This document shows, piece by piece, positions 4,469 to 52,850 of a stretch of 64,000 nt of DNA; position 1 is the first letter of the stretch; each line of letters begins with the position of its first letter. The notes below the pieces were generated by a model, which saw only the letters and a program-made list of their open reading frames with translations, had not been told where the DNA came from and searched no databases. The position numbers and the translations under genes are program-made. Source of the stretch: Sphagnum compactum (taxonomy: Eukaryota); assembly GCA_965153455.1 (NCBI GenBank), contig OZ234494.1, positions 620,001 to 684,000 of the forward strand. The letters run 5' to 3'.

Positions 4469-7400
4469 TCAAGGGCTAAGGGGTATAGGTTGCCATGCAG
4501 AAAATGCATGGACTATTTTCTCTTTCCAGCCTGCCAGTAACCAGCTGCCGTCTTCACCAATGCCATAATCCCTGTGATACATGGTCATCAAATTCCCGCA
4601 TTTCTCTCTAGCCTTATCCAATATTGGCATCTGTGTGAACCCTGCTCGTAGTGTCCGTGCCTGCCACTGCTTGTAAGGCTCGGCACGCTCCACCCTCTCC
4701 AGACCTTCACAAGCAACTATGTTGAGGATCTCACGGCCGAAGATCTCTTGCTCTACTATGACCCTGTCAGGATGCTCAGCTGGCATTGAAGCTTCTAGCG
4801 CATCAAACAAGGTTGAGAAGTGACTCACAGCCTCACGAAAGCGGGATGTGAAAAAGGGTGCATTGTAGCCTGCATTCACCACTCCTTGCACAAAGACCTG
4901 CAGCAAGCAAAACCATAAGGCCAAGCAGGATATGCATGTAAGAAATAACTTCTAAGCAACACCAATTATCAAATTTTTATCACTCATTAGCTTGATTCAT
5001 GCAGCCCTTCTTATGAAATAGATGCCTTACAGCATTTGCATCAACACATGCATACCACCACACAAATAGAAAACACAATGTGTCACTCCAAAAAGAATTG
5101 AAATACTTCAGAGTTAGTTATTCAAATAGACGCACACTGGCATGGTTATGGCAATTGATAACCTCAAAATACATGAGCAACAGGCCCTCCAAGTAGTCTT
5201 GGATGACATGATACAAAAATGAAATCACAAGAATCCACCAGTACCTTGGGGTTCATGCTTTGAATCCTCTTCAAAACCAGATTGCGAGGGCTTGCTGCCA
5301 TAATTGATTCATCCATCAAATGGCGAAGCCTGAAAATGCAGTTAACTGCTAATACTTCATCATTCCGCAAGAAAAGGTGTGCAGGCGTGATTGCCTCCCA
5401 TTTCTCAGCAATGGCATGGAACTCAAAGGGCACACCACAGTCCTCAGCCACCTGAGCAAGCCTGCGACCAGTCTCTTGAATTCTTTCTGAGGGTCTGAAT
5501 CCCGCTTGTGGCCGATCAATCCCTGAAACAAAATATGCCAATGGAGGTCAGGAATAACACAGTTATGACCTTCAACTTCACTATATCACAACCTTGGAGG
5601 AATGCAAAATATGGAGAATACACAGTTGCTACACATATCAATTCAACATTTTCCTCATCTTTCCTTGCTAGAACTATTATCACTGTGAAAGCCACAGATA
5701 GACTGAGGGCCCACATGAATGCAGAAATACAAAAGAGCATTTAGTAGACCTGGGGAAAGACTTGATGCAGTACAGACAAAAAAAATAAAATAATACCTGT
5801 TATGCGAAGGTGCGGTGGCCCTCCAGGAAGATTAGAAAGATAATACATGAAACATGGCCATTGGACACCATAGAGGATACCATAGTCAACTATATGGACC
5901 CGTTTTGCATCACCAATTTCATTTATAATTGTCATATTGGAGAAGTAATGAGACAACCGCACAAAGGGGCAAGTTTCAGCAAAAAGGCGAAACGCTTTCA
6001 ACATTTCCAGTGCTGACGGACGGTTGTTGTTCAGAGCTGTGTAGAGTTGTCCACCAGTTCCTGACATTCTTGCAACCTGTCATCCACTTATCACACACAA
6101 TCTCAAAAACTCTTGCACAACATTTCCACCTGAGAAATCAGACCCTCACCTTTCACATCACATATGAAGAATAACAACAAAATGGCAAACATCTACCACT
6201 ACCTTCAAGTCATGAGCCAAAAACATAGTTGAGAATGAAGAACTGAAAGAAATGAAAAAGACACATAAGTTTGGATAAGTAGCACTAGAAAAAACAGTCA
6301 AATTATCATCAACCCATTCATCTCCACTTCTATAGTTTGTCCTATTTTCAATGTATCTCATTCCATCACATACTATCCTCTCCCACAGCTACTCCAGTTA
6401 CAGACTGATGAGGGTTGGTGACTAAACGAACCAGAGCTTCCATGAAATAGTGAGCCATGCGCTGTGGCCCATTTCCATAGGCTGATGAATGCTGACGAAG
6501 CTCTGCAATCTGCTCACTAGCATGTGAGAAGTCATTTTGTTCAACAGCCTGTGCACACCTGAAAGTAAAAAATAATAGACATGACTAGATTAGCAGAGAC
6601 ACAAACCTTTGAATTCACATTACAGAAGGCAGACTGTAGACACTGACAACATCACCAGCAGTCACATGAAAGGAGGATTACCGGTTACCATGCATCATGA
6701 TCAGCTGCAGTGTTATTTATGCACAAGACAACTCTCAGGGAGATTCAGCTCAATAGAGAACCTAAATACAGAAATCACCCTCTATTGCAACACAGGTACC
6801 CTTGCCATGTACCAAGCAACTAGATCAACAATATTAATCTGGACCAATGAATCTTGGTTCTTCTTTATACTCCTGCTACCAGATAACATCACTCCTGTGT
6901 GGACCAACTCATCTACAACAAGACATATATATCTGTATTCACAAGCTGCCAGTCTCTGAACAGGTGATCTTCAGTCACCCTTCATTCTACATGAAACACA
7001 GTGAAGGTATGCAATGGAGAAACATCAAGCTGATGAATGTTCTCATCAATGTCTAGTATATACACACAGGTTATTTCAGATTCTTTTGCCAGACAGCAAC
7101 CCTAGTGCTTTCCTTCAAATAGAAGAAGGATGCTCCTTGCTCAAGAAGACCTCCGAGACACCCAGCAGCAAAGAAAATGCTATAATAGACAAAATCATTT
7201 CACAGAAGGTGGCAGTCTAGCACCTGCAAACACATGAATTCCAGAAACCAAGATCTTCCCCTTTATGTCTAGGGTAAGGATGAAGTGGGGTTCCTGAAGC
7301 AGGAAGACAGACTGACAGCCCTTTACCTGAGAAGAAGATAGTTCAGATCAACTGGAGGTATGTGATGCCCATTGCTAATCTGCTGAGAGACGGTTGGCTT

Positions 7401-8516
7401 TGAAACATAGCCATTCCCACCATTGGCCATGTTAGAGTGGTGAAGGGCATCATCATCCAAGCTTGAGGGACAAACAGAATCCAAGTCAGGACCTATGCTT
7501 TGAACTCCGGCAGCCTCAGGGAGCATCTCTACTTCATTTGCCCATGACCCACCATTTCCGACAGCAAAGTTTTGAAATAAATCACAACCTTTGTCACTTG
7601 TGAAGCTTTCATAGCTATGTTCCAGCCCATCTGGGAGTACCTCATCGGGCAAGGGACTATCTGTGATTTCATCGAACCATCTGTCTAGATCCTCCTTGTC
7701 AGAGGATTTGGTGTCAGACTGAAGAGGGGATTCATCCCCTATCAAGTCCCCCAGCTCTTTGGCCATAGCCTGGTAAGCACTACACTCCACAAACATACAC
7801 TTATTATGCTCTGGTTCCTCATCCAGAAGGCTGTTCAGGTACTTGTAGAAAGGAATATTTCTTCCTTCACCCCCAACTGCAGCATCCACGGTGTCAAGAT
7901 CTTGCAAGTCGATGGGACTTCCAACCTCTCCTTCACTAGGAGTACTTCCTGTAGTATAATCAGGAGAGTAAGCACCTGCAAGAGATGCAAGACTACTATG
8001 GCCAGACATGCTGAGAACAGGTGCTGCTGCTGCTGCCAAATTCTCGAAGGAACTGGAGCTCTGAAGCATAGCAGGACTGGCAGAGAGTGATCGATGCTGA
8101 AGGGAAGGAGAAGATGTTGTTTTCTTCTTAGCAGCACCGCTCACCATGCCATCCAAAAGAGACGGACATGAATTCCAAGAGTCATACGCTAGGAGGGACA
8201 GCGACCTGGGCTTTGGGCCTTCACCCTCTTGGAAGACGGAGAAGATCATCGGCTTCTTCTCTTGAGGTAGCGCGGCGAGCTCCGGAAAGATGGAAGAGAG
8301 CGACTTGAAAGCAGACTGCTCCTCCAAGGGGACTGGGGGAGAGTGCGGAGACTGAACCTCTGGGCTGGTCTTCCCCTGGCTAGGAGCGGAGATCAAAGAG
8401 CGCTTCTGCGTCTTTGGCATCTGTGTTTGTAGCCATGCCTGCTGCAGCTGCGCCGCAAGAGGAGACACTTCTCCTCCTCCACTTCCTCCTGATCTACCAT
8501 GCTTGCTTCCTGCCAT
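4469..8516 (-). CDS. GRAS (SCARECROW-like) transcription factor, LISCL/SCL14-type, ~767 aa, 5 exons
   Basis: Exons 8516-7327, 6558-6432, 6076-5797, 5522-5245, 4897-4469. All introns are GT-AG with consistent phases, total 2304 nt. Motifs: LLLRCAQAV (LHRI), GNGPQRMAHYF, VHIVDYGILYGVQWP (VHIID), LRITGIDRPQAGFRPSERIQETGRRL, APFFTSRFREA, RVERAEPYKQWQ, and terminal SAW. N-terminal DEEPEHNKCMFVECSAYQAMAKELGDLIG resembles the LISCL acidic motif. Confidence 0.95.
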
Positions 8517-8676
8517 ACTTAGATTTCTTTTCTCTCGTCCTATTCTGTACCCTCCTCCTATGCTGTGTTCTCTCTTGCCGCACAACTAGTCCTATTTCTG
8601 CTGCCCCTTTCTTTCTCTGCTCCGTGATGCATACTACCAGAAGCTCGTACACCAAATCCCTTGCTGCTGCCGCTAC

Positions 8677-25744: not shown

Positions 25745-27400
25745 AATTGGGAAAATAACAAAGCCTAATTGAAGCAAATCAGATTTTAATTGGGTGAAAT
25801 CAAACCAAAGGTAGAATGAAAATAACCAAACCTAGAAAGAACAAGGTTTAATTGAAGCAAATCAGACCTTAATTGGGTGAAATTAAACCAAAGTTGGAAA
25901 GAACAACCCTAATTGAAGTTTTTAAAGCCTAATTGAAACAAATCAAAATTTTATTGGGTGAAGTCAAACCAAAGTTAGAAGGAATAGAACCAAATTGAAG
26001 CAAATCAAACTTTAATTGGGTGAAATCAGACCAAAGCTAGAAAAAAAAACTTAATTAAAGTTTCTAGAACCTAGTTGAAGCAAATCATATTTTAATTAAG
26101 TGAGGTCAAACCTTAATTAGACATATCAAAACCTATTTGAATTTCCAAAACCTGATTGGGTGAAGTGAGACCTTCCTTGGGTGAAATCAAACCATAATTG
26201 AAAAGAGCAAAATCAAATTGAAATTTCTAAAGCCTAATTGGATGAAAATCAAATTTTAATTTGGCATATGGGAGCCAAATTGAAGTTTCCAAAGATTGAT
26301 TGGGTGAAATTAGACTTTAATTGGATAAATCATAGCCAAATTGAAGGTTTTAAAATTTAATGAAGTGAAATTAAACTTTATTTGGGTGAAATCAAACTTT
26401 AATTAAATATATTAGAGCTAAATTCAAGTTTATATAGACCTTACTTGGGTGAAATCATAACTTAATTGGATATATTATAGCCAAATTAATGTTTCTAAAG
26501 CCTAATTGCGTGAAATTACATTAACTAAGTGAAATCAAACTTTAATTAGACATATGAGAACCAAGTTAAAGTTTCCAGAGCTTAATTGGGTGAAATCAAA
26601 CCATAAATATTGGATAGATCAAAACCAAATATATTCAAGTTTATAGATCCTACTTGGGTGAAATCAAACTTTATATTGATTGGACAAATCATAATCTAGA
26701 TGGGTGAGTTTGACCTTAATTGGGTCATTGTAAATTACTTTTAACTAAACATATTAATGGAGTTTAATTGGCTTATTCAAAGATTAAATAAGAGAAAATG
26801 AAGCTCATGGTGACATACTAGTTCCTAAATTGGTGATTTTGACCTTCATTAAGTGAAAACAAAACTTAATGAGATAGATGAAAGCATAATGGCTGATTCT
26901 AACCTTAATTAAATCAAGGTAGACCTTGAACTTTTTAAATAAAGTGAAATTGGGTCACTTCTAAAGCCTACTTTGGTGAAGGAAAAACTTAACAAAATAG
27001 ACTGAAACCTAATTGAGATTGATACAAAAGTTAATAAAATAGATCAAAACGTAATTGAAATAAATATAAATATTAATTAAAACAAAACAAAGACCAAACT
27101 AGTAATTTAAAGCCTACTTTGGTGAAGACAAAATTTAATAATACAAAGTAGAGCCTAATTGGGAGACCAAGGCCCTAGTTGGGTGAAGATTTAAATCATA
27201 AACCACCAATTCTAACCTATTTGAAAACAAATTTGTATAGGAGTGGAAAAAGAACTTAAAACCATGATTCAAGTGAAACCAAACCCTAAGCCATTGATTT
27301 AGAACCTAATTAGTTGATGAAAGATTTTATTGGGTGAAAAGGTTAATTAGGTGATTCAAAATTTAAATATGACAAAATAATGCACAACAATAATAAAAGA
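25745..27400. repeat. Degenerate ~21-bp minisatellite array (~1.6 kb)
   Basis: aattgggtgaaatcaaacctt / aattgaagtttctaaagcct variants recur dozens of times. Confidence 0.88.
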
Positions 27401-29523
27401 CAAAGCTAAAAATGATGCACATAATGTAATTGGTGATTCAAAAGTTTAACTTAAGAAAACTAGAAGCTATTTTGACATCAAAAACATATGCTTGGGAGAA
27501 CTAGAACCTACCGACAATTAAACACAAGGAAATCAAAACACAAGTTATTGGGTGTAATTCCACCAATAAATTTTCACATCAATGGGGTGGGGAAAGTTTA
27601 AAAGGAAAGGACATCAAAGCTTAACTCGCATAATTAGAGTTGAATTGGGTGATGAAAGAACTTATTGGGTGAAGATGGAGTTAATAAGTGATTTAAAGCT
27701 TAAATAAAATAGAGCACAACTTAAGTATCAAAAAACAAAGCTCAATTTGATGAACATAATAACATTGGGTGATTCAAAGGTTTAATTGAGAACTACAAGC
27801 TATTGACATTAAAACATAAGCTTAAGAAAACCAAAACCTAATAATGGTAGAGCTTAAGAAAACTTATTACCAAAAAAACTTAAGAGAATTAAAATGTATT
27901 GACCTTTGAACATAAAACACAAGCCCGTAGTGTAATTCAACCAAGATTTGTAACATAGTTATGAAAATCAAACCCAAGTGCTTTGAGAATCAAAAAATGT
28001 TCAGCTTTTAAATTAACATCAAGTGTTGCATGACAAATATGGGTAGCATTTTCATTCTACATAAAGGTTTGTAGGCTTGACTTTGGGTCCTCAAATGATT
28101 TTGAATCGAAATCAAAATAAAAAAAATTCATTACTACAAAATGTGGGTGTAGTTCATTAGTCCCCGTTCACTAGTCCAGTGAATTCACTACTTCTTCACC
28201 GGTCTTCGTTCACTAGAACTAGGGAATTCACTCAAAATCCAATGAAATCACTTGGCATACAGGGACACCTTTTGTTGTAGCGAATGTTTGTTAATACCAA
28301 ACATTCATTCAAGCAATGAAATTCAAGTTTAGAATGGGTTGAAAGGACTGCCTTTTAATCCCATGTTTTTTAATGCCATTGAGGTGGCGGCGTTTATGAT
28401 GAATTATAACAATCTTAAAAACACTCCCACAAAACATTATTACCCGCAACCCTAAACCATGATTTGTTCACTTGACGAAGACACCATAATATCAAGGGGG
28501 TCCTTGGAAGGTATAGAATAATGTGGTTTATCACTAAAGCATCCAAGAAAAGAGGCAACAGTAACCTTCAAATTGATTGTCAATTTAGGGTTAGGGCACT
28601 ATAAGGAAATTTGGGTGGGTTGGCTTACAACTTTTACATTAGGAGTTCAAGAAGGATGGTTGAAGGAATAAGTCAGTAATATGGATGCCAATGATTGAAT
28701 AAATTGAGCCATGTGGCAGTTGACCACATTGACAACAAAAATGATTGCCACTTGAGTTAAGCTCCACTATGGCAATCAAAAAAATCTCATCTTCATTTGG
28801 ATTTATATTACACCCATGTTGGTTTGAAAACTGGAGATTATAAGCTTTTAGGTTTGTTAACCTTAAACCTCACATGATGGTTTGAGACTAATTGGGTAGT
28901 TTGGGGGTTGTGTTATTCCAATCGGCAGCATTAGTTGTTGTTGAGCTCCTCTGTCAATGGCGATGATATTAATGGTTATTCAACAATGTTGTAATAGTTG
29001 ATGGTTGGAGCTTAAGGGTTCATGAATGTGGTTGGCCGAACTAAATCTTGTGAAGCCTCATGATGATGACAAAATGTGTTAAAGCCTTGAATCCTAAACA
29101 ACACATCACATAAAGTTTTCATGCCTAACAAACCTTTGCAAGAAAAAATTCAACACCCAAAAAACCCAACAATATGTTGAAACTTGAAAAAGTTACCAAA
29201 AAACCTAAAACATGTTGAAACAACACACCTTTTTTGTATAGTTTTACAATAAGATAAGCTTACATCATATTGCATGAAATTAGTTTAATCATGCATCAAA
29301 ATATCACTCGGTTCAAGCTTACAGTGCTTTAAGTTAGAAAGATAAGTCAAGCGTTAATTTCAATAAGTTACACCATTGTGTAAATTAGCCACATTAGTTA
29401 GAATGATGATGATTAAAATAGATCAACTAGTTCCAAAAGTACTCATGAATGTATATATTCTTTTCTTCCCATGTATTCTTTTATCAAATTATTAAATATC
29501 GATCTACATTGAAAATTCCTACA

Positions 29524-29535
29524 TGGTATTAGAGC
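29524..29535 (+). mobile_element. Probable tRNA-iMet primer-binding site of a decayed LTR retrotransposon
   Basis: ...aaattcctaca|tggtattagagc: a CA end followed by a one-mismatch match to the canonical TGGTATCAGAGC. No gag/pol is recognisable downstream. Confidence 0.45.
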
Positions 29536-30026
29536 GATTGATTTTCTTGGATCCAAAGTGATCATGAGTGTTTTTTTAGCATCCCAATTTGTCTTGCATT
29601 ATGTGGGTCGAAAAAATGAAGGAGGTAGGTTGCATAGGGTGGGTGCAAACTATAACCCTATTTTGGTGGCTCTCTTGCAATGAACAAAAGATCCTTGAGA
29701 ACACACTCTACAAACTTCTTGTTCTTCATCTTTCATAGCAATATGGATGCAATAACAATGAGGCAATCAATAAGAACGACATATGTTAGCAAGAATCTTA
29801 ATATCTTGATGAGGAAAAGTCGATTATAGGGTTTACACTACTTGAATAAATGAACATTGGGGAGAAATGAGTTGTTTGTGGTTGTACTCACTTATTACAA
29901 TTGGTTGCGAACACATTTACACGCTTGGATCCAAGACAGGGACATAAGAAGAAACAGAACAGTTGTCCTCTATCAACATCCAAAAAAGAAGAACATGTTT
30001 GGATTGTAGGATCCCCAAGGTTGATA

Positions 30027-30143
30027 GAGGACATACAAATTGATGGAGTGCAACCAATGCGAGATACCTTCCACAACCTCATCACTAGCTGCATGAAAGG
30101 TGATTGATTGTAGGATGTTATGTTAATTTTTGATGAGATGAAA
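30027..30143 (+). pseudogene. Isolated fragment of a PPR gene (At4g35850-like mitochondrial PPR)
   Basis: EDIQIDGVQPMRDTFHNLITSCMKGD*L*DVMLIFDEMK. Restoring TGA>CGA and TAG>CAG gives KGDRLQD..FDEMK, matching the recalled DDMxLDGVQPTxDIFH...MKGARLxDAFFFxxEMK. Confidence 0.6.
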
Positions 30144-30367
30144 TTGTTTTATTGTAACTTTTCTAGAGCTAAGCTGGGGTAGGTTCAATCATGTATTTAC
30201 CCATGGCAAGGATTTTACTTCAATCCGTCTGCTTAATTCGCCCAGCTCAACTGCAATCCACACTCTCTTCTTAAGAACCATAGAGGCAACCCCAATACTG
30301 TCTGTGGGTTGGAAAGGGCAAAACCAAAAGTGGAAAGGAGCTTCCAGGTTAGTTTCTCCCAACATAC

Positions 30368-31831
30368 CTTCTTTGCCTTTGCACGTTGTTGCCCATTAGA
30401 GGTCACAGTCCAAGATGGCAGCTTTTGTTGCATTGGAGTTGGTCCATCAGGATTCAACAACACCTGTGCTGGTGGTCGTACTTCATTCACATTGCTGGTG
30501 TCTGTGAAGTCACTGAAGACCTTATGATTCTCACTCCTTGAGATTCCAGGGCTATGCACCTCAGAGAATGTCCCACTATCCGTATCCAGGCTCCCAGGGC
30601 TGCCTATTTCGGGACCATGGCATTCAAACTTGTGGACAGCAACCCAATGCTGCATTTGACATTCTGTACAACTGGACATCCCCCAAAAACACAACCAAAT
30701 TGTACGTTCATGAACTGCATATATCATCATCAGCAAACCAATCACATCAAGGCCGTATGGGTATGACCCCACAATATGCTAACCCGCATGATGACATTCC
30801 AGAGAGGCTCCAAGAACTGGACAGTCCCAAAACACAACCAAATCATAAGTTCATGAACCGCATGTAATATCATCACCAGCAAACCAAACACATCCATCAA
30901 GGCCATCTCACAACATCCCAACCCACATGATGACATTCCAGACAACCTCTGCCCACATCAACACAGTGTGTTAGGAAAATGCATACCAGTAATGTACCCA
31001 CTTGCACTGCTTGCATCGTATTTTTTTTGATTTCCCACATACAAAATAAAAATATCAACCTTCACCCATCTGTTGCTTGTTCTTAGGCTACACAGCGCTT
31101 GGTACTTCCCCCTGCTGCTGCTGTGCCTCGTCCACACTCTTAGTGTGGTTTGCTAGTTCCTCTGCCTGATTTCTGGGTGGAGCTTCCAACATCTGTTTCT
31201 TTTAAGGGTTAACTTCTAGCTCAGCCTTTTGCTCCTGCTGAAGAATAGCTGCTTCTTCCTCAGCCATTTTCTGGCTCTTAGCCTTCTCCTCCTCCTCAGC
31301 CTGTCTTCTCCTATCTGCAGCTTCATTCTCAGCCTGCTTCCTCCGTTCAATCTCCAATTCAGCTTGCTTCCTAGTGTGAGATTCTTCCCCTTCCCATTTC
31401 CTGTTTGCATCTTCAAGCTCCACCTGCTTCCTAATGTGAGCTTCATCCTCTGCCTGTTTCCTGTTTGCAGCTTCAAACTCCGCTTGCTTCTTGTTTGCAG
31501 CTACAAGCTCCGCCCGCTTCCTCTTGTTGACAGCTTCCAACTCTGCATCCTCTCTGAGTTTAGCTTCAGACTTCGTCTGCTTTCTGTAGTCACCTTCTCC
31601 TCTTGCTCCTACTGCTCCTCAACATCGGTGTTCGGGTCTGGAAATGTCTGACTGCTTCAACCTTTTGGATTCCTCTTCCCACCTGCCGGGCTTGCTCCTC
31701 TATTGCCACGCACTGCAGCCTAAGAAACTCTTCTTCTCTCGCCTTGTTGGACTTCCGTGAGCACAATAATCACATCAAACTGACCACTAACAGCACAGCT
31801 GGGATCTCAGAAGAGGTCTAAGAAATGGCAT
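30368..31831 (-). pseudogene. 3'-truncated UBP15-19-like (zf-MYND ubiquitin-specific protease) N-terminal fragment: TM, coiled coil, MYND finger
   Basis: Candidate ATG at 31831, then SEIPAVLLVVSLM*LLCSRKSNKAREEEFLRLQCVAIEEQAR. A 10-aa coiled-coil repeat follows. The MYND finger YFVCGKSKKIRCKQCKWVHYC/CTECQMQHWVAVHKFEC is split by a GT-AG intron (30672-30986). The last exon ends ..AKAKK|GT at 30368 and no protease exons follow. In-frame TAA/TAG/TGA stops and frameshifts are present. Confidence 0.65.
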
Positions 31832-31889
31832 ATTTGGACAGAAACCCCAAGATTCAATCCCTCTAGTGTACAGTCCTACCGAAGGTGGA

Positions 31890-34800
31890 CATGGAAATCC
31901 ATCCAGTTCCCCAACACGCATGCCTTGGTCAAAATGTTTTTGACAGATCCATCCCAATTCTCCTGTGTCCTTGTAGATCACTCTCTGCAACCCAAATTTA
32001 TTTTAAAATGTCTTTATCTTTCAAAAAATTCACCAACCATTGCTCTGCAGACGCCCTCTCTGCTGTTCTGATGGCAAATGCCTCATCCCTCACAAGCTTT
32101 CCAGGGGCGACAGGGGCCCAATCTATTGGTGGGTCTTTAGCACACCTTCACCAAATGCGACAACAGCCTTTCCATATTCCATTTTAGGATTTGGAACCAT
32201 GTTCCCCAGCCCCATTGCAATGTGTGCCCCCACTTCGGCAGCCAAGAAAACCCATTTCAACCCCTCCACCACCAACTCGTGAACTTTCTTCCAATTCTCG
32301 TCTTCGAGGATCACTTGACAACCAGCTTGTCCTTCAACTATGTGCTCCTGTCCCTTGTATTCACAAAGTAGATGAAGTTGAAGAGCTTTCATCCCTGGAA
32401 CCAGTTTTGTGATCAATTTTTGTTTGAAACTAGCATCTTGTTTGGTGAAGAGTACAATGCGTGGAACTTGCCGTTGTGAGGAGTTCAAGATCAAGTCGCG
32501 TATGAGTCTGGTAACACTCAAAACATCATTTTTGACAAGCTTGTGCATAGAATACATGAGATTGCGTGTATCATACATGAGATTGTGTGTGTATCATGAA
32601 CAACAGTTGATAGCTGCTGGATTTCACATGCTAATTCACCCACTGGTTTGTCTTGATGCTGGGGTGATGGATCAAGCTCTTGTATCTCTCCTTGCAACCT
32701 GTTTGTCCCGGTCAATAGGTCACTTGGCGTGGAAACGATCATGTGCTTATTATTGGACCGAGGCTTCAAGTAGGAGCCTAATATGCTGGAAGAACTTGAA
32801 CTCCACAACCATCCTCTTGAGAATACAGTGGACTGATCCTGATGGGCACCACCAAGCTCATCTATACCCTGCAATCCTCTTCGCACCACATCCTCTCTCT
32901 CTCTCGTCCCCATAAGGTTCATGGCAGATTCACAAGCTACATCAAGAATAACATTTTTCCCTTCTCTCAACTCATCCCATGGGTGTTGGTAGCCAATCCC
33001 ATGAGAAAGAACCGCTCGCTTCAACTCTTCTAAAAGCACTGCTTGGTCTCGTCGCTCCCTGAAAGACATGTGCTGTTTCACACACTCTGTACGAATGACT
33101 CCCTCCACAAGTGCAACCCCTTGACATCCATCTGCAGCAGCACAGCGTTCTCGAATTCTTTCTATAATATGCCCATGAACAATATCGAGAGCTTCATCAA
33201 AACTCTTCTTGTGTGAGCATACCAACACATCGATGTGGGTGCCCACATTTGCACTGTAATCCATTACAATTTCCACTCCATTGAGCATTACATAAATGAA
33301 ATCTCTTTTGGGTTTGTACACTACTCTCATTTCCTTATCCACCTTCAAGAAGTTGTTGTGCAGAACTACCTGTAGGAATAACAATCTCAAAATCAAATGC
33401 CAAATCACATGAAGTAGGATCAAATTAACTTGAAATGGACAGCTTCCATAATGCAGGATATACGGTCTTGCATCAATCTTCTAGATTACTTGGGATGTAA
33501 GTTTTCACTCCCAACTAGTTTGGCCACAAAGTTTCTCCAATGCAATTGACTACCTTGTCAATGGTTTGGAGGAATAGTAACAAAAGTACCTGGAGTCGAC
33601 AAAAAAAACCTTGCGGTATGAAGGTGCAAATTGGGTCATCACATTGGAGCCTCCTTCCAAAGTAGGTGGAGTTCATGTTCTGATTGTTTGGTGACCAATT
33701 CCATGAGCCTGCTGCTTGACCAATGTCCAAAATTGTTGGGACGAACAATTTGTCAACACCATGAGACCTGGTTGTGTGTTCAAAACACAACTCTAACCTC
33801 AACATAAGGTGCACCAAATTTTGTGCTATGACATCCAAAGCACATCCACCATAACCAAGCTCACGAGAAGATTTCAGTGAATCAACCAAAATGTTTTCCA
33901 AGTATGCCCTTGATGTGAAACCATCTGGGTTTGTTGCAGTGGCCAGTTTACTGCGATCATCACTTAGCTTGATCAGGTGACCCATCACCTGATGGCAAAA
34001 CCAATCCAGATCCACAACTAAAAAGTCAAGATCTTCAAAGTAGATGACATCTCGTGAATTGTGCATGCTTGTTGCCACAGCTTTTCGCCTTGCTCCCACC
34101 ATACTTCCTTCAGCAGTTACTTTCACCAACCCTGGCAAATCTGTTTCCTGGCACAGGTCTGAAAAGGTTTTCCAATTCATCATTGGACTTTTTGGATTTC
34201 TCACCATCCAACCATTCAAGGCTGATCTCACATTACTGCACACCTCATACACTTCTAGCAATGCTTTGAGAAGATTTACAATGTTGTCTTCAATAACACT
34301 AGCCACATTGCTAGCTGATTGAGTAGAAAAGCCCTCAACGGCAATTGGTTCCGACCACACATCTAGCAATTTTGCAAATTGCTCTTTCAAACTTGTGACA
34401 CACCCCTGTGCTCAAGCAACAAGCCCAGGAACTTTGTCGGAATGAGTCAAGACCACGATCACCTTTGGTTTGAAGGAAATTGTACTTCGACTTTTGGAAG
34501 CAATGAATCGAAGCCAATACTCCAACTCTTTCTGAATCTCTATGGGTAGTTTAACCTTCTCCTTTGAAGGGAATCCCTCATCTCTCAATACATATGGACT
34601 ACAAACTAGAAGGAACAAGGATGGGTTACCTGTGTCGCTTAGATCAGGAAGGATGAAATAATGGAACCCATGGAACTCTTCCTGACCCCCCATGTCCCAA
34701 ATAGACCATCTAATCCCTTCACTACTTTTCAAGCTATGTACCTCAATTCCACGTGTGTGGTGTGTAAGTTGTTTGCCTCCTTGGATTAGCTGTTGACCCC

Positions 34801-36202
34801 CATCATTCATCATGAAGTCTTTGCAAGAATTGAGAATGCTTTTGCTGATCATGCTTCTGTGTTCTATGGAATGGACCACTGCCTTTCGCAAGGTTGTTTT
34901 GCCTACATAATTCCACAATAAACAGGGTGCATTCATGTGCCATGAACAGAAGATGCAAAAAAAAAATTTCTACTATGAATCAGTCATAAATTATAATTTC
35001 CATGCGACAACATGATTCAGGCAACGACAAAGTTTCAAACACAAACACATTGATGTCCTCTAGTTCAACCAAGAGAGATTTAAGATGTACTGGCATATGG
35101 AGAGCCGCAAAAAATTACTCTCGCAGATGTTGGCTTGGCCATCTCCAGCTTTTTGAGATGTAACTCCTTGGACATCGCATTTCTTCGTAGTTGTTCCTTG
35201 ATGGCCAAATACTTGCCCTTAACATGCAAAGGAGTTTCATGCAATTCTATATCTTTCAAGGTGAAATTGACCAATAGAACATGCATAATGGTAGGAAACA
35301 CAGAGCCTCTTACACCATCACAACCAGATAGGCCTAAGGTTTCAAGGGAATGGTTTTCTACAAGTGATCGTATCAATTCTTGCACATCTGATTCACTTGT
35401 TAAAGAACGACGTTGTCAAATCAAGATGCTTTATGGAAGAATTTTTCTGAAGCATCCTTGCAAAGGTAGCACCAACGTCTGAGCTCATAGCAGAAAGTCC
35501 GATAAGATGAAGAGCGGTGAGTGTAGAGTTGGCTTGGTGTCCGTTTTCGTCCATAATCAATGGTTGGACAAGTTCCTCCAAATCTAATTCCATATAATTA
35601 CTAGAGGAACTTATTTCAAGATGTTGAAGGGTGTGATTCATCTTGAGTGCGTTGCCAAAACCAGAAGGCGGCTTCGTTGCACCTACAATTTCGAATAGCT
35701 CGAGCCTGAAACGTTTGAGGCCTATATTACGACAAAGCATATCCGCAGATTTGTCCAACACGAGTCACTCGTCGAGTTCCCAGGAGATATCAGATGAAAG
35801 CTAGCACTTAATATGGTATGATTGGTGCAGAGACCTTGCAAAAACTGTTCAATAACATCATGGGTATCTGGTCGACGATCGCTAAGCACATCAATGGCTT
35901 TCACATTAGTGCTCTCGAGGAGGACTATAGACACCAATTCCTTCAGATCATCCCCTCCTGAAAGACTCCACTTGGGTTTAATATCTCCATCAACTTGTGG
36001 TTCCTCAAGCCGGCCTTCGCTAGAATCAGCTTTGCATTGATGATATCTCATAACCAAACTAATATAATCCCTAGTGCCACCTTCCCTTAAGGGACCATGT
36101 TCTTGAATATAGATTGCAAGCTCGTCCACCACGACATCGCTAGCTAGCTGTAAGGATTCTCGAAACCTCTTGGACAACATCAGTGATGATTGCGTCTGCC
36201 AT
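31890..36202 (-). pseudogene. TRN1: TORNADO1-like LRR-Roc-COR (Roco-type) pseudogene, with two introns retained
   Basis: RI-like LRRs (ALKMNHTLQHLEI, MLQKNSSIKHLDL, LVENHSLETLGL); P-loop ARVIFCGSPYA(S)KTTL across intron 34903-35090; HHTRGIEV; SIWDMGGQEEFHGFH; ELEYWLRFI; VVLTHSD; COR-like YFGRRLQCDD..FIPQGFFCRLQ/VVLHN (intron 33370-33589); C-terminal QLHLLCE..HIVEGQAGC and KFGLQRVIY..GELGWICQKH. Six frameshifts and one in-frame TGA (34412-34414). Confidence 0.9.
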
Positions 36203-36244
36203 GATCAACAAGCCAAAAAGCTTCTATGATGAGCCCATAAATAT

Positions 36245-36540
36245 ATCCATAAAGTCACCCTGTCTTCACCCTGTCTTTGGACCTCCTTTCACCCCCAAAC
36301 CCCTCTTTCAACCTCAAATCAGTGGTATCCACAAAGTAATGAAATTGCATTATTAAATCTGGGTATGGAATGTTGAAATCTTAAACTAATTTAATGCACA
36401 AGAGTTTGAGACTAATTATAGTAGAGGTACATACATGTAGGAGCAATGAAAATATATGTAACAACACTAGAGGCCCTTAGGAGAAAGGAAAGAGGGGGTG
36501 AAGATGGGATGAAGTCAGATGACCACAAAAATTGATTGAT
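36245..36540 (-). repeat. Inverted copy of the 20.3-20.8 kb repeat, directly upstream of the TRN1-like ATG
   Basis: ctgggtatggaatgttgaaa...atttaatgcacaagagtttgagactaattatagtag...tgtaggagcaatgaaaatatatgtaacaacactagaggc is the reverse complement of ~20335-20445. Confidence 0.8.
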
Positions 36541-36782: not shown

Positions 36783-36827
36783 AACCCTAAACCCATAAAC
36801 CCTAAATCCCTAAACCCTAAACCCTAA
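36783..36827. repeat. Interstitial telomere-like repeat (CCCTAAA)n, ~6 imperfect units
   Basis: aaccctaaacccataaaccctaaatccctaaaccctaaaccctaa. Confidence 0.8.
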
Positions 36828-37789
36828 TGAAATGAATTAGGAAAGATTTCAGTAAGTCTGGTTACAAGCGAGATATGAAATATAAAGATTTAATCATCCT
36901 TCTAAAATGCTTTGTGCACACTCAAAACTAACTATAGAAATCTAGCAATTTCAGGAAAAAAATAAAATTAACTCCAAAAATTAACTTACACCCAAATTCA
37001 ATATATTAAAATTTAATGCGACAAACCTTAGTTTTCTAAAATAATTAATTTCGTTTCAACATGAAAGACCTTGCTATGTGGGTATGTGAATTAGGTGGGT
37101 ATCGGGGATGGCTTTCAAGTTAAAGGTTTTTTTTTTAAAAAAAAATTGAGCTTGGCCCGCCCAATCCAAAAGAGAAAACCCTTCACATTTTGAAAGTCAC
37201 CCAACATCAAAATTTCTATCCTAGATGGGTTGTAGATTTTTTCTCAAAATCCTGTTTTGTATCGATAGCTTTTATGAATGTAATATCTAAACCTGGCAAC
37301 TTTTAACAATTTGGCAAAATTTGGAAATATGGCAAAATTTGGCAAAACAATCCCAGAAAGACCTTTGTAGCATATGCATGTGATTCTTTTTTGACTGCCA
37401 CAATGCAAAAATTCACCCAAAAAAAACGAACCATTGACCATGACCCTCCCAAACTCTCAAGTACCCAACTCCACTTTGGTACCACCAAAAACCCTAAACC
37501 ATGAGACAGGGTATAATAAGTTTCTCATTTCACAATTGTTTGAACCAACAGAGCAAAAGTTATTCAATTTAAAGTGATTATTATTGTCCTTAGAATTTTT
37601 AGAATTTTAACAATGATTTTTTCACAAATTAACCTGGCAAAATTCCATATGAACATTGGAGTTAAACCCCCTGATAGTATTAAGATGGAAGGTTTTAAGT
37701 ATTAGAACCATATACATGGATCAATTACAAATTCTCTGACTTCGGTTACCGTTTTAAGTAACTTAAACATTAGAAAATCCCGCCAAAAA

Positions 37790-50258: not shown

Positions 50259-51859
50259 CCAGGACCTTTTTGGAGGTTTCGGTTTCCCAGAATGGGCTAT
50301 ATCAGTCAGTCTACATCAGCCCAGCAATGATGATCAGTCCTTTTCTTGTTGCCGATTTATTGCCAAATTGCGAAGTGTGACAGTGACCCTTCAAAATTAA
50401 CTAAGAAGAAATTGAAAGAGCATCACCAGCGGAGAACCTTTTTCACTGATCTTGTCGCTAATATCTTATATTAGCTAATGCTATAAATATTCTTGTAGCC
50501 ATTAAGTGCACCACATTTTTTGTCTCAATCTTTCTCTTATAAAAGCACCAGTTTTGCATTAATGATTGCCATCTGTGCGATATCTACATTTCCTAAGAAA
50601 ATCGCTGGTGAGGATAGGAAGTTTTGGACGTTTACAAATTACAAGTAAGTTGCATCTCGGAACCAAAAAAATTTGGGCTGTTTATGAAGGTGTCAGTATA
50701 GATGCTGGTTCACCCATCATCATCCATGGCAAGTTGCTACATCTGAAGCAACCCCAAGATACTTGGCAGTGTGCAAAAGGTCTACCATAGTACCTTCATC
50801 ATTTTGGCATTAGTTTTTAAAAATTCGATAAATGCCCAATTTTTTCAACATTAGCTGCCCAAAGTGCTGAATTTTTTTAAAGAAAATTGCAAGTGCCAAA
50901 AGTTGAAGGGATTAGGTTTTCTTATATTAGATATGTGCTCTCTGTCTTTGTCCTGCTTCTTCTCAGCTTCTTATAAAAACATGCATGATCCTCAGTCATC
51001 TTGTCTTTTTCTCCACCCAGATACTACTACACAAATTTCATTTAGATTTTGAACCTCTTTGCTTGCAATGTTTTCCTCTTAATCAACTTTGCAATGGGTC
51101 TCTTTGTGAACATTTTTGTCCATGGTAGACCAGTAGCTAACTGATGAGCACGAAGCTCCTGCTCCTGGAACTACAAATGCAGTTTTGCTTGGTGACTGGT
51201 ACCTAATGGATATTCATGAAACTCATGTAGCTGAGCTTTGACAATCTTCCCATTTTGTTTTGCACTTGGTGAGCCTGAAGCCATTGATCCTGCATTCTAC
51301 ATTGAGAATTTAATAGAGATGGAAATGGAGGAAGGGAAGGGAGGAGGAAGAAAGGGAAGAAGAAGAGTAGTAGCTAGGAGCAAACCAAAGTCACACTAAA
51401 AAGTTGGCGATGAATTGGGAGTAGGTAGCAACAACAACAATTGGGGTCCCTAGGCCATACCTGTACACTACGTATAATCATGACTTTCATGACTAGGACA
51501 CTAAACGACTATGTCCACTATAATCATTTCTACTATGGACATGGACAAGGTTATCATGAATACGACTCTATGAACATGAATAGTAAGTGTAACCATTTTG
51601 AGTCATTTGCATGACTCCAAAACTAAGATTATGATTTCATAACTACCTAAGAATATGACTACAACACAAGGTGGTCCCCCAACAATATAAAATTAATTCA
51701 AACAACATATCTAGTATAAAATATTTGGGTATCGATTAATTACACCAAGAAAGTTTAACTAGTACATAATCTTAAGGTTTAGGGTTCCGATACTTAAATT
51801 GAAAAAACCAATGACAAAATGGGAGATTAAATATTATAATTTGAACGGGGGTTCATGCT

Positions 51860-52850
51860 TGGGATGTGAAAAGACCAAAGGGGCAATGGAGGTTCATAAT
51901 GCAAGGCTTGCTTATGTGGGCAATCCATGATTTGCTTGGACATGGACTACTTTCAAACCAAGTAACTCAGGGTTACAAAGGATGTCCAATGTGTAGGCCA
52001 AACACAACTAGTCATCATTCAAAAAGGCTTGGAAAATCTACCTATGTCCATCACCATAGGTGGTTGCAACAAAACAACTCATATCAAACAAATGTTCGTG
52101 ATTTCAATGGGAAGTCTGGAAGAAGTCTGCCCCCACCTATCATGTTAGCTTTTGATGTTCTTTTGCAAGCCAATTTGTTTGAAACTTGGAAACTAAAAGG
52201 TGGGAAGGAGGAGGACAATCCTTTTCAACAAAATGAAGTGCAAAAGTTGTTTACATGATTTACCACTTTGGCATGTTAGTTTTGTTAACCTCATTGGTCT
52301 AATTTGAATTTTTATTACATGGATGATGTCAGACCTACAAAACTTTGATTGGTCATTTTCAATATGTTTTACTATATTGATTACAATGTCCTTTTCTCAC
52401 TTGGTAATAAAGATGTCCATTATTTGAAGGGAAGATAGTTGCCCCTAAAAAAGAACATCATGACTATCATTTGATGAATTCCACAATTTTAATTAACCTA
52501 AAGGATTTGAGGTACCATTGTTGGTTTGACTTATGCCAAATGATAACATTCAAAATTTCATCAATTTTAGGGTTGCCACTCTTGGGATGGTATGATCTTT
52601 TGCCATGGCTAGTTAAAATATCTTGGGCCACTATTAATGTAGTCAATTTGAATTGTTACAGCTTGTTGCCTTAAATCTAGGATATGGGTAGTCAACATAT
52701 GTACTAGTTACACATTGTGTGCTTGTTAGGACCTTCAAATACAACACACATTCGATGTGATGCATTGTGAAAAAAATTTAACAGTGAATATATTACAAAC
52801 CATCCTTAGGGGAAAAAACAATAGAAATGTCAAAGCTGATTTGCAACAGA
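51860..52850 (+). mobile_element. CACTA/En-Spm (Transposase_21/Tnp2-like) fragment
   Basis: FIMQGLLMWAIHDLLGHGLLSNQVTQGYKGCPMC...HHRWL...FNG, then HTFDVMHCEKNLTVNILQTILR; these match recalled WTIHDFP..GY.ACP.C and DVMHIEKN motifs. Confidence 0.78.

Follow-up and report, generated by a model that had tools for sequence, protein, structure and literature searches.

A stretch of 64,000 nucleotides (nt) of Sphagnum compactum (assembly GCA_965153455.1, contig OZ234494.1, positions 620,001 to 684,000 of the forward strand), hereafter the window and the frame for all coordinates given below, carries on its minus strand a dead TORNADO1-like (TRN1-like) gene of the Roco type. Its LRR-Roc-COR coding sequence is followed downstream by a decayed fragment of a UBP16-type deubiquitinase gene, into which the TRN1-like reading frame seems to run. 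The sequence-only reading of this DNA had seen here the possible relic of a receptor-like chimera with an integrated domain. Comparison with related loci gives a different picture, whose structural part is held with high confidence: the downstream piece is a captured and decayed gene fragment, and mutations private to the window copy mimic a fusion. The reading as a whole is considered probable. It places a dead array member in the window, with a dead UBP fragment in its 3' flank that was non-coding before the subfamily spread and is transcribed as a 3' untranslated region (UTR) in paralogs. The assignment of the fragment to a long, intron-bearing 3' UTR of the paralogs is favoured by a smaller measure.

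Junction in related loci and RNA over it

Related copies were taken from metagenome contigs with the last 86 residues of protein P0006 as query, which returned 44 loci (L001–L044). A UBP-like module starts about 70 nt past the TRN1-like end in 21 of them (L001–L018, L020, L027 and L033), which represent 14 distinct junction types. The junction is present in L018, whose TRN1-like frame is full length in three stop-free pieces, and in L001, L002, L003, L005, L010, L015 and L017, where this frame is open over 450–500 residues. Because the same junction recurs in 21 of the 44 loci, open TRN1-like frames among them, the juxtaposition of the TRN1-like end and the UBP fragment is, to judge by these alignments, not due to chance. 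Paralogs with the same junction, for which the sequence-only reading had suggested looking, thus exist, and RNA coverage is found among them. The module is absent from 11 loci (L021–L026 and L028–L032; about 57–82% protein identity to P0001, a S. fallax TRN1-like protein of 1287 residues), each with at least 984 nt of downstream flank, and from the 11 distant loci L034–L044.

The lack of a stop after the conserved ...ELDGFPCP end of the window gene was correctly noticed before: the frame stays open for 33 more codons to a TAG at 31789-31787 and passes an in-frame ATG (31831-31829). The junction alignment comprises 15 types, namely the window and the 14 types from the 21 loci. At the stop site, four other types have TAG in the same CCACCT context, and a stop occurs within three codons in 12 of the 14 other types. 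Counted by locus, the stop follows the ...FPC end within three codons in 17 of 21 and stands six codons later in three, the remaining one (L020) being frameshifted. Subfamilies without the fragment have their stop at the same place. The extra C-terminal domains that had been envisaged for TRN1-like proteins were not encountered, since none of the 17 matching proteins lists zf-MYND or UCH and none of the 16 TRN1-like proteins examined extends more than two residues past the C-terminal motif.

Stop and module are separated by a spacer that contains the ATG at 31831. Alignments of the module-less loci L024, L026 and L029 to L010 continue for up to 65 nt behind the stop and end at most 4 nt from the start of homology to P0039, a Sphagnum UBP. 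The spacer, being homologous to the 3' flank of a subfamily without the module, is read as TRN1-like 3' flank. The UBP homology begins at about codon 3–5, without a start codon of its own, and the ATG at 31831 is probably not the UBP start. The use of this ATG as UBP start had been a candidate and was dropped in view of the homology of the spacer around it to the module-less flank. At the end of the spacer the window lacks 9 nt that hold a TAG in every other copy, where it closes the frame of the ATG after five codons. The change of TAG to TCG at the stop site and this 9-nt deletion, both read from the assembly sequence, occur in one of the 15 junction types, that of the window. Together they create the 33-codon open frame and hence the impression that a Roco gene continues into a UBP/MYND module.

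The fragment itself is decayed in all copies. Alignments with P0039 (tblastn) contain stops inside the fragment in 21 of 21 loci. A TGA in the region coding an N-terminal helix and an 8-nt gap are found in all 15 aligned types, and a second TGA in all 14 types that reach it. These lesions are common to all readable junction types, which argues that the fragment was already dead in the common ancestor of the copies. The single frameshift that had been placed between the ATG and the UBP frame gives way to a longer series formed by the TGA, the 8-nt gap, the second TGA and two more stops, which lie in exon A just upstream of the MYND finger. Pooled DNA identity (9 sequences, 36 pairs) is 94.3% for exon A of the fragment, 94.0% for the module intron, 92.6% for exon B, 93.4% for the TRN1-like C-terminal coding sequence and 97.0% for the spacer. 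Since the module exons are no more alike than the module intron, the exons appear to be under no coding constraint and not to be kept by selection. With a stop that is kept and ancestral, a spacer that is flank and a module that is dead everywhere and free of coding constraint, the sequences do not support a protein fusion.

RNA was followed in a raw polyA run (X24, about 12% of its reads used) and in two sets of RNA-library contigs (X18 and X15), mapped to the window together with a set of DNA contigs (X1). The metagenome locus L014 and the genomic L012 and L010 are colinear (99.4–100% identity) over a stretch that opens 552 nt upstream of the TRN1-like stop and closes 2.8 kb downstream of it. 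Three GT-AG introns (L012 positions 1452-1774, 2082-2194 and 2283-2829) are missing from L014, and a later one is kept. L014 is best read as the partly spliced RNA of a paralogous locus, continuous across the junction. Over the module and the junction, X24 has a mean depth of 0.45–5.06 per bin with first mates on one strand only, the lowest bin being that with the module intron, and depth falls to between 0 and 0.68 below 30193. The strand fits a minus-strand RNA, assuming the common stranded library type. These reads are not from the window copy: 374 of 395 mapped reads are only 95–99% alike to the window, those that cover its lesions carry the paralog state (2 of 2 at 32001, 3 of 3 at 32135, 8 of 8 at 32584 and 28 of 28 at 34414), and depth is 0 in five consecutive bins of the divergent LRR part (34813-35967), from which it follows that they come from paralogs. 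RNA assignable to the window's own copy was found in none of the four runs, and this copy looks silent. Together with L014, this low coverage suggests sense-strand transcription of the fragment, behind the TRN1-like stop, in paralogs. RNA across the junction, as proposed before, is therefore present in X24 reads and in the L014 contig from paralogs, and none of it is assignable to the window copy.

Make-up of the pseudogene and of the fragment

The window gene was rightly recognized as a dead TRN1-like LRR-Roc-COR gene. P0001 is covered from residue 1 to 1287 over 36202-31886 in seven tblastn pieces of alternating frames (71–95% identity). A 320-residue open reading frame (ORF) of the region matches 17 Sphagnum proteins, the best of which are unnamed or hypothetical proteins of 1229–1294 residues from S. 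fallax, S. magellanicum and S. tenellum with 77–90% identity. Domain models give faint signals. The Pfam Roc model scores E 1e-4 (23 bits) with the window ORF and E 2e-4 (22 bits) with P0001, both below the 27-bit cut-off. COR-A (E 0.0046 for the window, 0.0011 for P0001) and COR-B (E 0.018) are also under the curated cut-offs, as is a weak LRR signal in P0001. Precomputed annotation places COR-A on 2 of the 17 matching proteins and, for the N-terminal LRR, PF27087 (LRR_TMOD-LMOD) on 14 of 17. Pfam finds no kinase domain in P0001. The protein displays a P-loop GxxxxGKT and DxxG-type motifs, WDMGGQ included, the P-loop of the paralog proteins reading GSPYAGKTT, and a protein-feature search sets it, with a score of 0.98, next to a cluster that bears the name "protein TORNADO 1". 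For the window gene and its relatives, TRN1-like Roco is thus a reasonable label, judging from their sequences.

The window TRN1-like copy is dead. Damage to its reading frame amounts to at least six frameshifts, one TGA and the lost stop codon (Table 1). RNA reads have CGA in place of the TGA, and X1 DNA contains both states (34.1 of 69.9 depth). The base that ends exon 1 (35091) is an A, which would turn the P-loop GKT into SKT; the P-loop glycine is thus probably replaced by serine in this copy.

Downstream, residues 32-56, 61-283 and 286-388 of P0039 match 31760-30359 at 76–92% identity (tblastn, E 4e-92 and 1e-46). P0039 (865 residues) and P0040 (873 residues) are Sphagnum UBPs with zf-MYND (E 1.1e-9 in P0039) followed by UCH in Pfam. 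Their genes lie on a contig of about 15 Mb, apart from the 24–27-Mb contig of the TRN1-like genes. A search with the 101-residue MYND exon (30670-30368) against 1.84 billion representatives returned only six short ORF fragments. P0023 (59% identity) and P0028 run on into a stretch resembling a USP Cys box, and this led to P0038, P0039 and P0040. These matches mark the downstream piece as part of a deubiquitinase gene of the UBP16 type, present as genomic DNA and decayed. The UBP15-19-like N-terminus, coiled coil and intron-split MYND finger described from the bare sequence are all borne out in kind, by the P0039 match, by 30-nt repeats and by the intron at 30986-30672, respectively. Since the fragment keeps its introns, it would have been copied as DNA and not by retroposition.

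The second half of the MYND finger covers positions 25-39 of the Pfam zf-MYND model in the window (E 0.056), and the spliced paralog L014 gives E 1.9e-8. In intron 1 of the fragment, about 140 nt are duplicated in tandem (30683-30949). The interpretation of this as a doubled MYND exon was rejected, as the duplication lies within the module intron and is present in paralogs too. Exon B ends with ...AKAKK before the donor GTATGT (30368/30367). The fragment had been taken to stop at this donor without any protease exon. There is indeed no USP-domain exon in the window, and a vestigial terminal exon does follow behind a 117-nt intron. From the order of parts in L012 and L014 and the protein sequence of P0039, the coding part of this exon (30250-30233) may be a remnant of the USP Cys-box region or of the exon after the Cys box. 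Homology to L010, L018, L020 and L027 ends at 30224, and no locus among the 44 matches window positions 26001-30223. P0039 residues 389-865, which form the USP/UCH catalytic domain, have no match anywhere in the window. All six paralogs that reach at least 2.8 kb past the stop have two more USP exons (P0039 residues 498-540 and 538-591), and in L015 the first of these stands at the contig end. Residues 389-497 (the Cys-box region) and 592-865 were not found in any copy examined. No direct or inverted repeats were found that link both flanks of the 6-kb unit. Capture by a transposon, with a carrier of the Pack-MULE or Helitron type, was considered as well and has no support, given the lack of flank repeats and of any locus that matches 26001-30223.

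Note that a related protein, P0038, has an open frame of 375 residues with hydrophobic helix, coiled coil and full zf-MYND (E 1.5e-10) on an intronless contig of 1754 nt, in a cluster of 17. Its frame closes in the vestigial terminal exon that the decayed copies also have, and it is 96% identical to P0040 over 84% of its length. Its locus is not among the 44 TRN1-related loci. P0038 may represent a short MYND gene that has survived, a splice variant or a hybrid made in assembly.

Table 1. Features of the TRN1-like pseudogene and of the UBP fragment in the window, in the order of transcription
Feature	Position	Strand	Basis or remark
TRN1-like (LRR-Roc-COR + C-terminal module) pseudogene	31880..36202	-	ATG 36202-36200 to former stop 31882-31880; tblastn P0001
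Frameshift 1	36141..36142	-	Frame change between tblastn pieces
Further frameshifts	~35762, ~35410	-	Frame change between tblastn pieces
TRN1-like intron 1, within P-loop codons	34903..35090	-	X15 contig joint links 34903 and 35092
In-frame TGA	34412..34414	-	...GLVA-stop-AQG vs paralog ...GLVARAQ (Arg)
TRN1-like intron 2, GT..AG, 220 nt	33370..33589	-	X15 contig joint skips 220 nt, ends CT..AC on + strand
Frameshift, 2 nt extra	32584	-	All covering RNA reads and RNA contigs unshifted
Frameshift, 1 nt missing	32135	-	All covering RNA reads and RNA contigs unshifted
Frameshift, 1 extra A in A-run	32001	-	All covering RNA reads and RNA contigs unshifted
Former stop codon, now TCG	31880..31882	-	Junction alignment of 15 types
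Spacer, TRN1-like 3' flank, contains ATG 31831-31829	31817..31879	-	Homology to module-less 3' flank
Private 9-nt deletion	31816..31817	-	X18 contig loose end at 31817 carries undeleted letters
UBP-fragment exon A	30987..31816	-	tblastn P0039 residues 32-283
Exon A hydrophobic N-terminal helix, interrupted by TGA	TGA 31772-31770	-	Translation and alignment
Exon A 8-nt gap, codons 57-60	~31685-31682	-	Junction alignment
Exon A second TGA	31621-31619	-	Junction alignment
Exon A coiled coil, 30-nt tandem repeats (10-residue)	31309-31522	-	Repeat analysis
MYND finger, first half	31048-30987	-	Translation; first Cys codon now Tyr
UBP-fragment intron 1, GT..AG, splits MYND finger	30672..30986	-	Homologous intron removed in L014 vs L012 and L010
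UBP-fragment exon B, MYND second half (30671-30620) and Ser-rich linker	30368..30671	-	P0039 residues 286-388, 82% identity
UBP-fragment intron 2, 117 nt	30251..30367	-	Homologous 113-nt intron removed in L014
Vestigial terminal exon, L-S-W-A-N-stop, TAA 30235-30233	30224..30250	-	Homology end at 30224

TRN1-like array and surroundings of the pseudogene

The matching proteins of each assembly are all encoded on one contig of about 24–27 Mb. Chromosome-04 gene names are used in S. fallax and S. magellanicum, six matches being named 04G115000 to 04G118800. A single contig of 44.5 kb holds both L010 and L032, in the same orientation and about 22 kb from each other; the former has the UBP module and the latter does not, which implies that the subfamilies with and without it are interleaved in one array. 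Rearranged or truncated copies are present as well (L019, L020); L019 retains no more than about 115 nt of the sequence behind the stop. The sequences support a multi-copy TRN1-like array with visible birth and death of copies. The proposal of a fast-turnover, domain-capturing family holds for the array, for its birth and death of copies and for the acquisition of a UBP-derived piece, and is not supported for a domain integrated at the protein level. The distant group L034–L044 has about 27–35% identity to P0001 and may be the true TRN1 ortholog.

Some individual copies are of unusual build. L020 has a partial TRN1-like C-terminus, then a second C-terminus, with TGG in place of its stop and an 8-nt deletion, joined out of frame to the UBP fragment, then a partial TRN1-like piece 3.4 kb further on. 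In one X1 DNA contig (depth 20.8), 31453 is linked to 31903 through six other letters; such a copy would have neither the TRN1-like stop nor the spacer nor the beginning of the UBP fragment.

The TRN1-like C-terminal module has a second context. Protein P0017 (about 790 residues) begins with a helical N-terminus and a protein kinase (Pfam E 1e-54), behind which stand ~285 residues that correspond to the TRN1-like C-terminus. The P0017 cluster has 10 members of 231–791 residues, including single ORFs of 721–722 residues on several metagenome contigs, and its nearest clusters in feature space are MLKL-like. A PDB sequence search with P0017 matched its kinase part only, including the plant chains 6lba and 6ka4, which are presumably plant MLKL structures, and found no match for the TRN1-like C-terminal module. 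The architecture of the P0017 cluster means that this module occurs in a second architecture; domain recombination thus does occur in the TRN1-like family, though not at the UBP junction. The predicted structure of the TRN1-like C-terminal module (18-row alignment) has a mean pLDDT (predicted local distance difference test) of 48.8 and a pTM (predicted template modelling score) of 0.45, too poor for a fold search.

The 5' flank of the window pseudogene departs from those of L009 and L018 at 36232, 30 nt upstream of the ATG. Identity to these two loci is a mosaic, with 83–85% at the DNA level over LRR-Roc-COR (36232-32787) and 93–94% over the C-terminal module and the UBP fragment (32545-30224). 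Such a pattern points to exchange among members of the array or to a faster-changing 5' part. A very high-copy repeat lies within 36199-36400 and starts about 40–100 nt upstream of the pseudogene ATG. In X1 its mean word depth is 11,887, compared to about 30–200 elsewhere, and loose read ends are numerous at 36244-36310. Further out, at 36797-36828, there is a short telomere-like CCCTAAA-type repeat. Elsewhere in the window, the minus strand carries a GRAS-family gene in at least three ORF pieces (4469-4951, 5164-5547 and 5741-6079; Pfam GRAS E 1e-24 to 1e-36) with a Ser-rich ORF of 420 residues upstream (7323-8585), and the plus strand carries a transposase fragment at 51845-52258 (Pfam Transposase_21, tnp2 family, E 3e-18).

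Origin of the arrangement and comparison with known systems

In the history that we consider probable, a fragment of a UBP16-type gene would have been inserted in the 3' flank of one TRN1-like gene, 65 nt behind its stop. The insert would have extended from about codon 3–5 to about residue 591, with its introns kept; neither the Cys-box region nor the final third of the USP domain is part of it. It would have lost its coding capacity before the subfamily multiplied, and the dead fragment would then have been carried along with each new TRN1-like copy. In the paralogs it would be transcribed past the TRN1-like stop as a long 3' UTR from which the old introns are still spliced. The window copy has decayed further, with truncation at 30224 and a different 5' flank from 36232.

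The idea that two unrelated dead fragments came together by chance at the window locus agrees with the death of both parts there. It is refuted by the recurrence of the junction, identical to the base, in the 21 loci with it, some of which have open TRN1-like frames, and its probability is practically nil. The descent of the window copy from a true chimera is also very improbable. It supposes an ancestral TRN1-like Roco protein with the UBP helix, coiled coil and MYND finger as an in-frame C-terminal module, and draws on an old and conserved junction, on the fact that in the window and in the junction types with CCACCT-TAG the spacer ATG is in the TRN1-like frame, with a single stop as the only barrier, and on P0017, where the TRN1-like C-terminal module stands behind an MLKL-like kinase, a sign that domains of this family do recombine. 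The position of the stop speaks against it: being common to subfamilies without the fragment, it predates the capture, and 65 nt of TRN1-like flank separate it from the fragment. The UBP homology is moreover in another frame, and its lesions are shared by every readable junction type. None of the 21 loci has an open module, and none of the 16 TRN1-like proteins examined runs on past the motif. No splice in L014 bypasses the TRN1-like stop. A search with P0038 among proteins of 658–2000 residues (8000 candidates scored, which makes it weak evidence) gave four matches, all with UCH and MYND and none with Roc or COR. The claim of a dead integrated-domain chimera is disfavoured on these grounds, namely the ancestral stop, the spacer derived from flank and the shared lesions, together with a run-on frame that is private to the window.

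An explanation that keeps an appreciable though minor share of the probability treats the fragment as a transcription unit of its own, with a promoter in or after the TRN1-like 3' end, which would yield a non-coding RNA in the decayed copies and a short membrane-anchored protein of the P0038 type, with coiled coil and MYND finger, in some. It accounts for P0038, which is open from its Met to the stop in the shared vestigial exon and has a full zf-MYND, and contigs cannot show that TRN1-like coding sequence and fragment reside on one molecule. The copies that adjoin TRN1-like genes have lost the UBP start-codon region and contain the shared stops, and L014 is unbroken from 552 nt upstream of the stop. 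The locus of P0038 is absent from the 44, and the 96% identity of this protein to P0040 would fit a splice form or an assembly hybrid.

Several points weigh against the captured and transcribed fragment as we describe it. The L014 contig is not proof of a single RNA molecule, as it could result from merged overlapping transcripts or, less likely, from a processed DNA copy. The spliced state is seen in one of the 21 loci, and L017 keeps the module intron in an unbroken alignment to L001. No splice joint that passed the threshold for reporting lies inside the module in any of the four runs (X24, X18, X15 and X1). The 44 metagenome loci are a mix of several Sphagnum species and of alleles, so that the 14 junction types do not equal 14 paralogs of one genome. 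The locus scan used exact peptide patterns from one subfamily, which biases the sample of copies. The indels at 32001 and 32584 are absent from the X1 DNA contigs that cover both sites and could be polymorphisms or assembly errors. Finally, the open frame of P0038 means that at least one copy may still encode a protein. 

What we infer is that one mRNA molecule carries both the TRN1-like coding sequence and the fragment, and likewise any regulatory consequence of such a link. Plant NLR transcripts have been reported to be under the control of nonsense-mediated decay. A doubtful extension of the preferred reading is that the spliced 3'-UTR introns put a receptor-like Roco subfamily under such control and that the array consists of moss Roco-type sensors whose C-terminal module is shared with an MLKL-like kinase.

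The finding is in itself modest: an ordinary pseudogene and a gene fragment that was captured, in a family for which no account of an expansion in Sphagnum was found in print. A literature search found no paper on Sphagnum together with TORNADO1 and, among the papers listed, none on Sphagnum with Roco in the GTPase sense. Two private mutations in a dead copy produce the apparent Roco-MYND chimera, and screens for integrated domains can go astray in this way when they trust a single open frame from a single genome. What remains is modest and real, a Sphagnum TRN1-like subfamily with a shared decayed deubiquitinase fragment in its 3' flank. The fragment can be used as a dated marker for reconstructing the growth of the array, and it offers a natural case for asking whether intron-bearing 3' UTRs regulate a receptor-like gene family.

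Arabidopsis TORNADO1 (TRN1/LOPPED1) is a plant LRR-Roc-COR protein encoded by a single developmental gene. P0001 has the same order of LRR, Roc, COR-A/COR-B and a kinase-free C-terminal extension, whereas the Sphagnum genes form a multi-copy array and their Roc and COR Pfam scores stay under the curated cut-offs. Gene fragments turned into intron-bearing 3' UTRs can mark plant mRNAs for nonsense-mediated decay, and the introns of L014 are likewise far downstream of the stop and spliced, the link on one molecule being inferred. NLR-ID immune receptors carry integrated decoy domains. Like them, a multi-copy, receptor-like LRR/GTPase family of Sphagnum has acquired an unrelated host-gene piece at its 3' end; unlike in NLR-IDs, this piece is separated from the coding sequence by an ancestral stop and 65 nt of flank, and it is out of frame and dead in every copy examined. 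UBP15-19 are given as the Zf-MYND group of plant UBPs in PMC11236618. The parents P0039 and P0040, with zf-MYND followed by UCH/USP, conform to this group, and the window fragment matches their N-terminal 388 residues; lacking the catalytic domain and the first MYND Cys, and with many stops, it is a pseudogene fragment and not a member. Brown-algal ROCO expansions are proposed as candidate immune receptors in PMC11378527. The Sphagnum genes belong to another lineage and have another domain set, and they resemble the algal ones in being a lineage expansion, in which the LRR-Roc-COR part is more divergent than the 3' part when the window is compared to L009 and L018.

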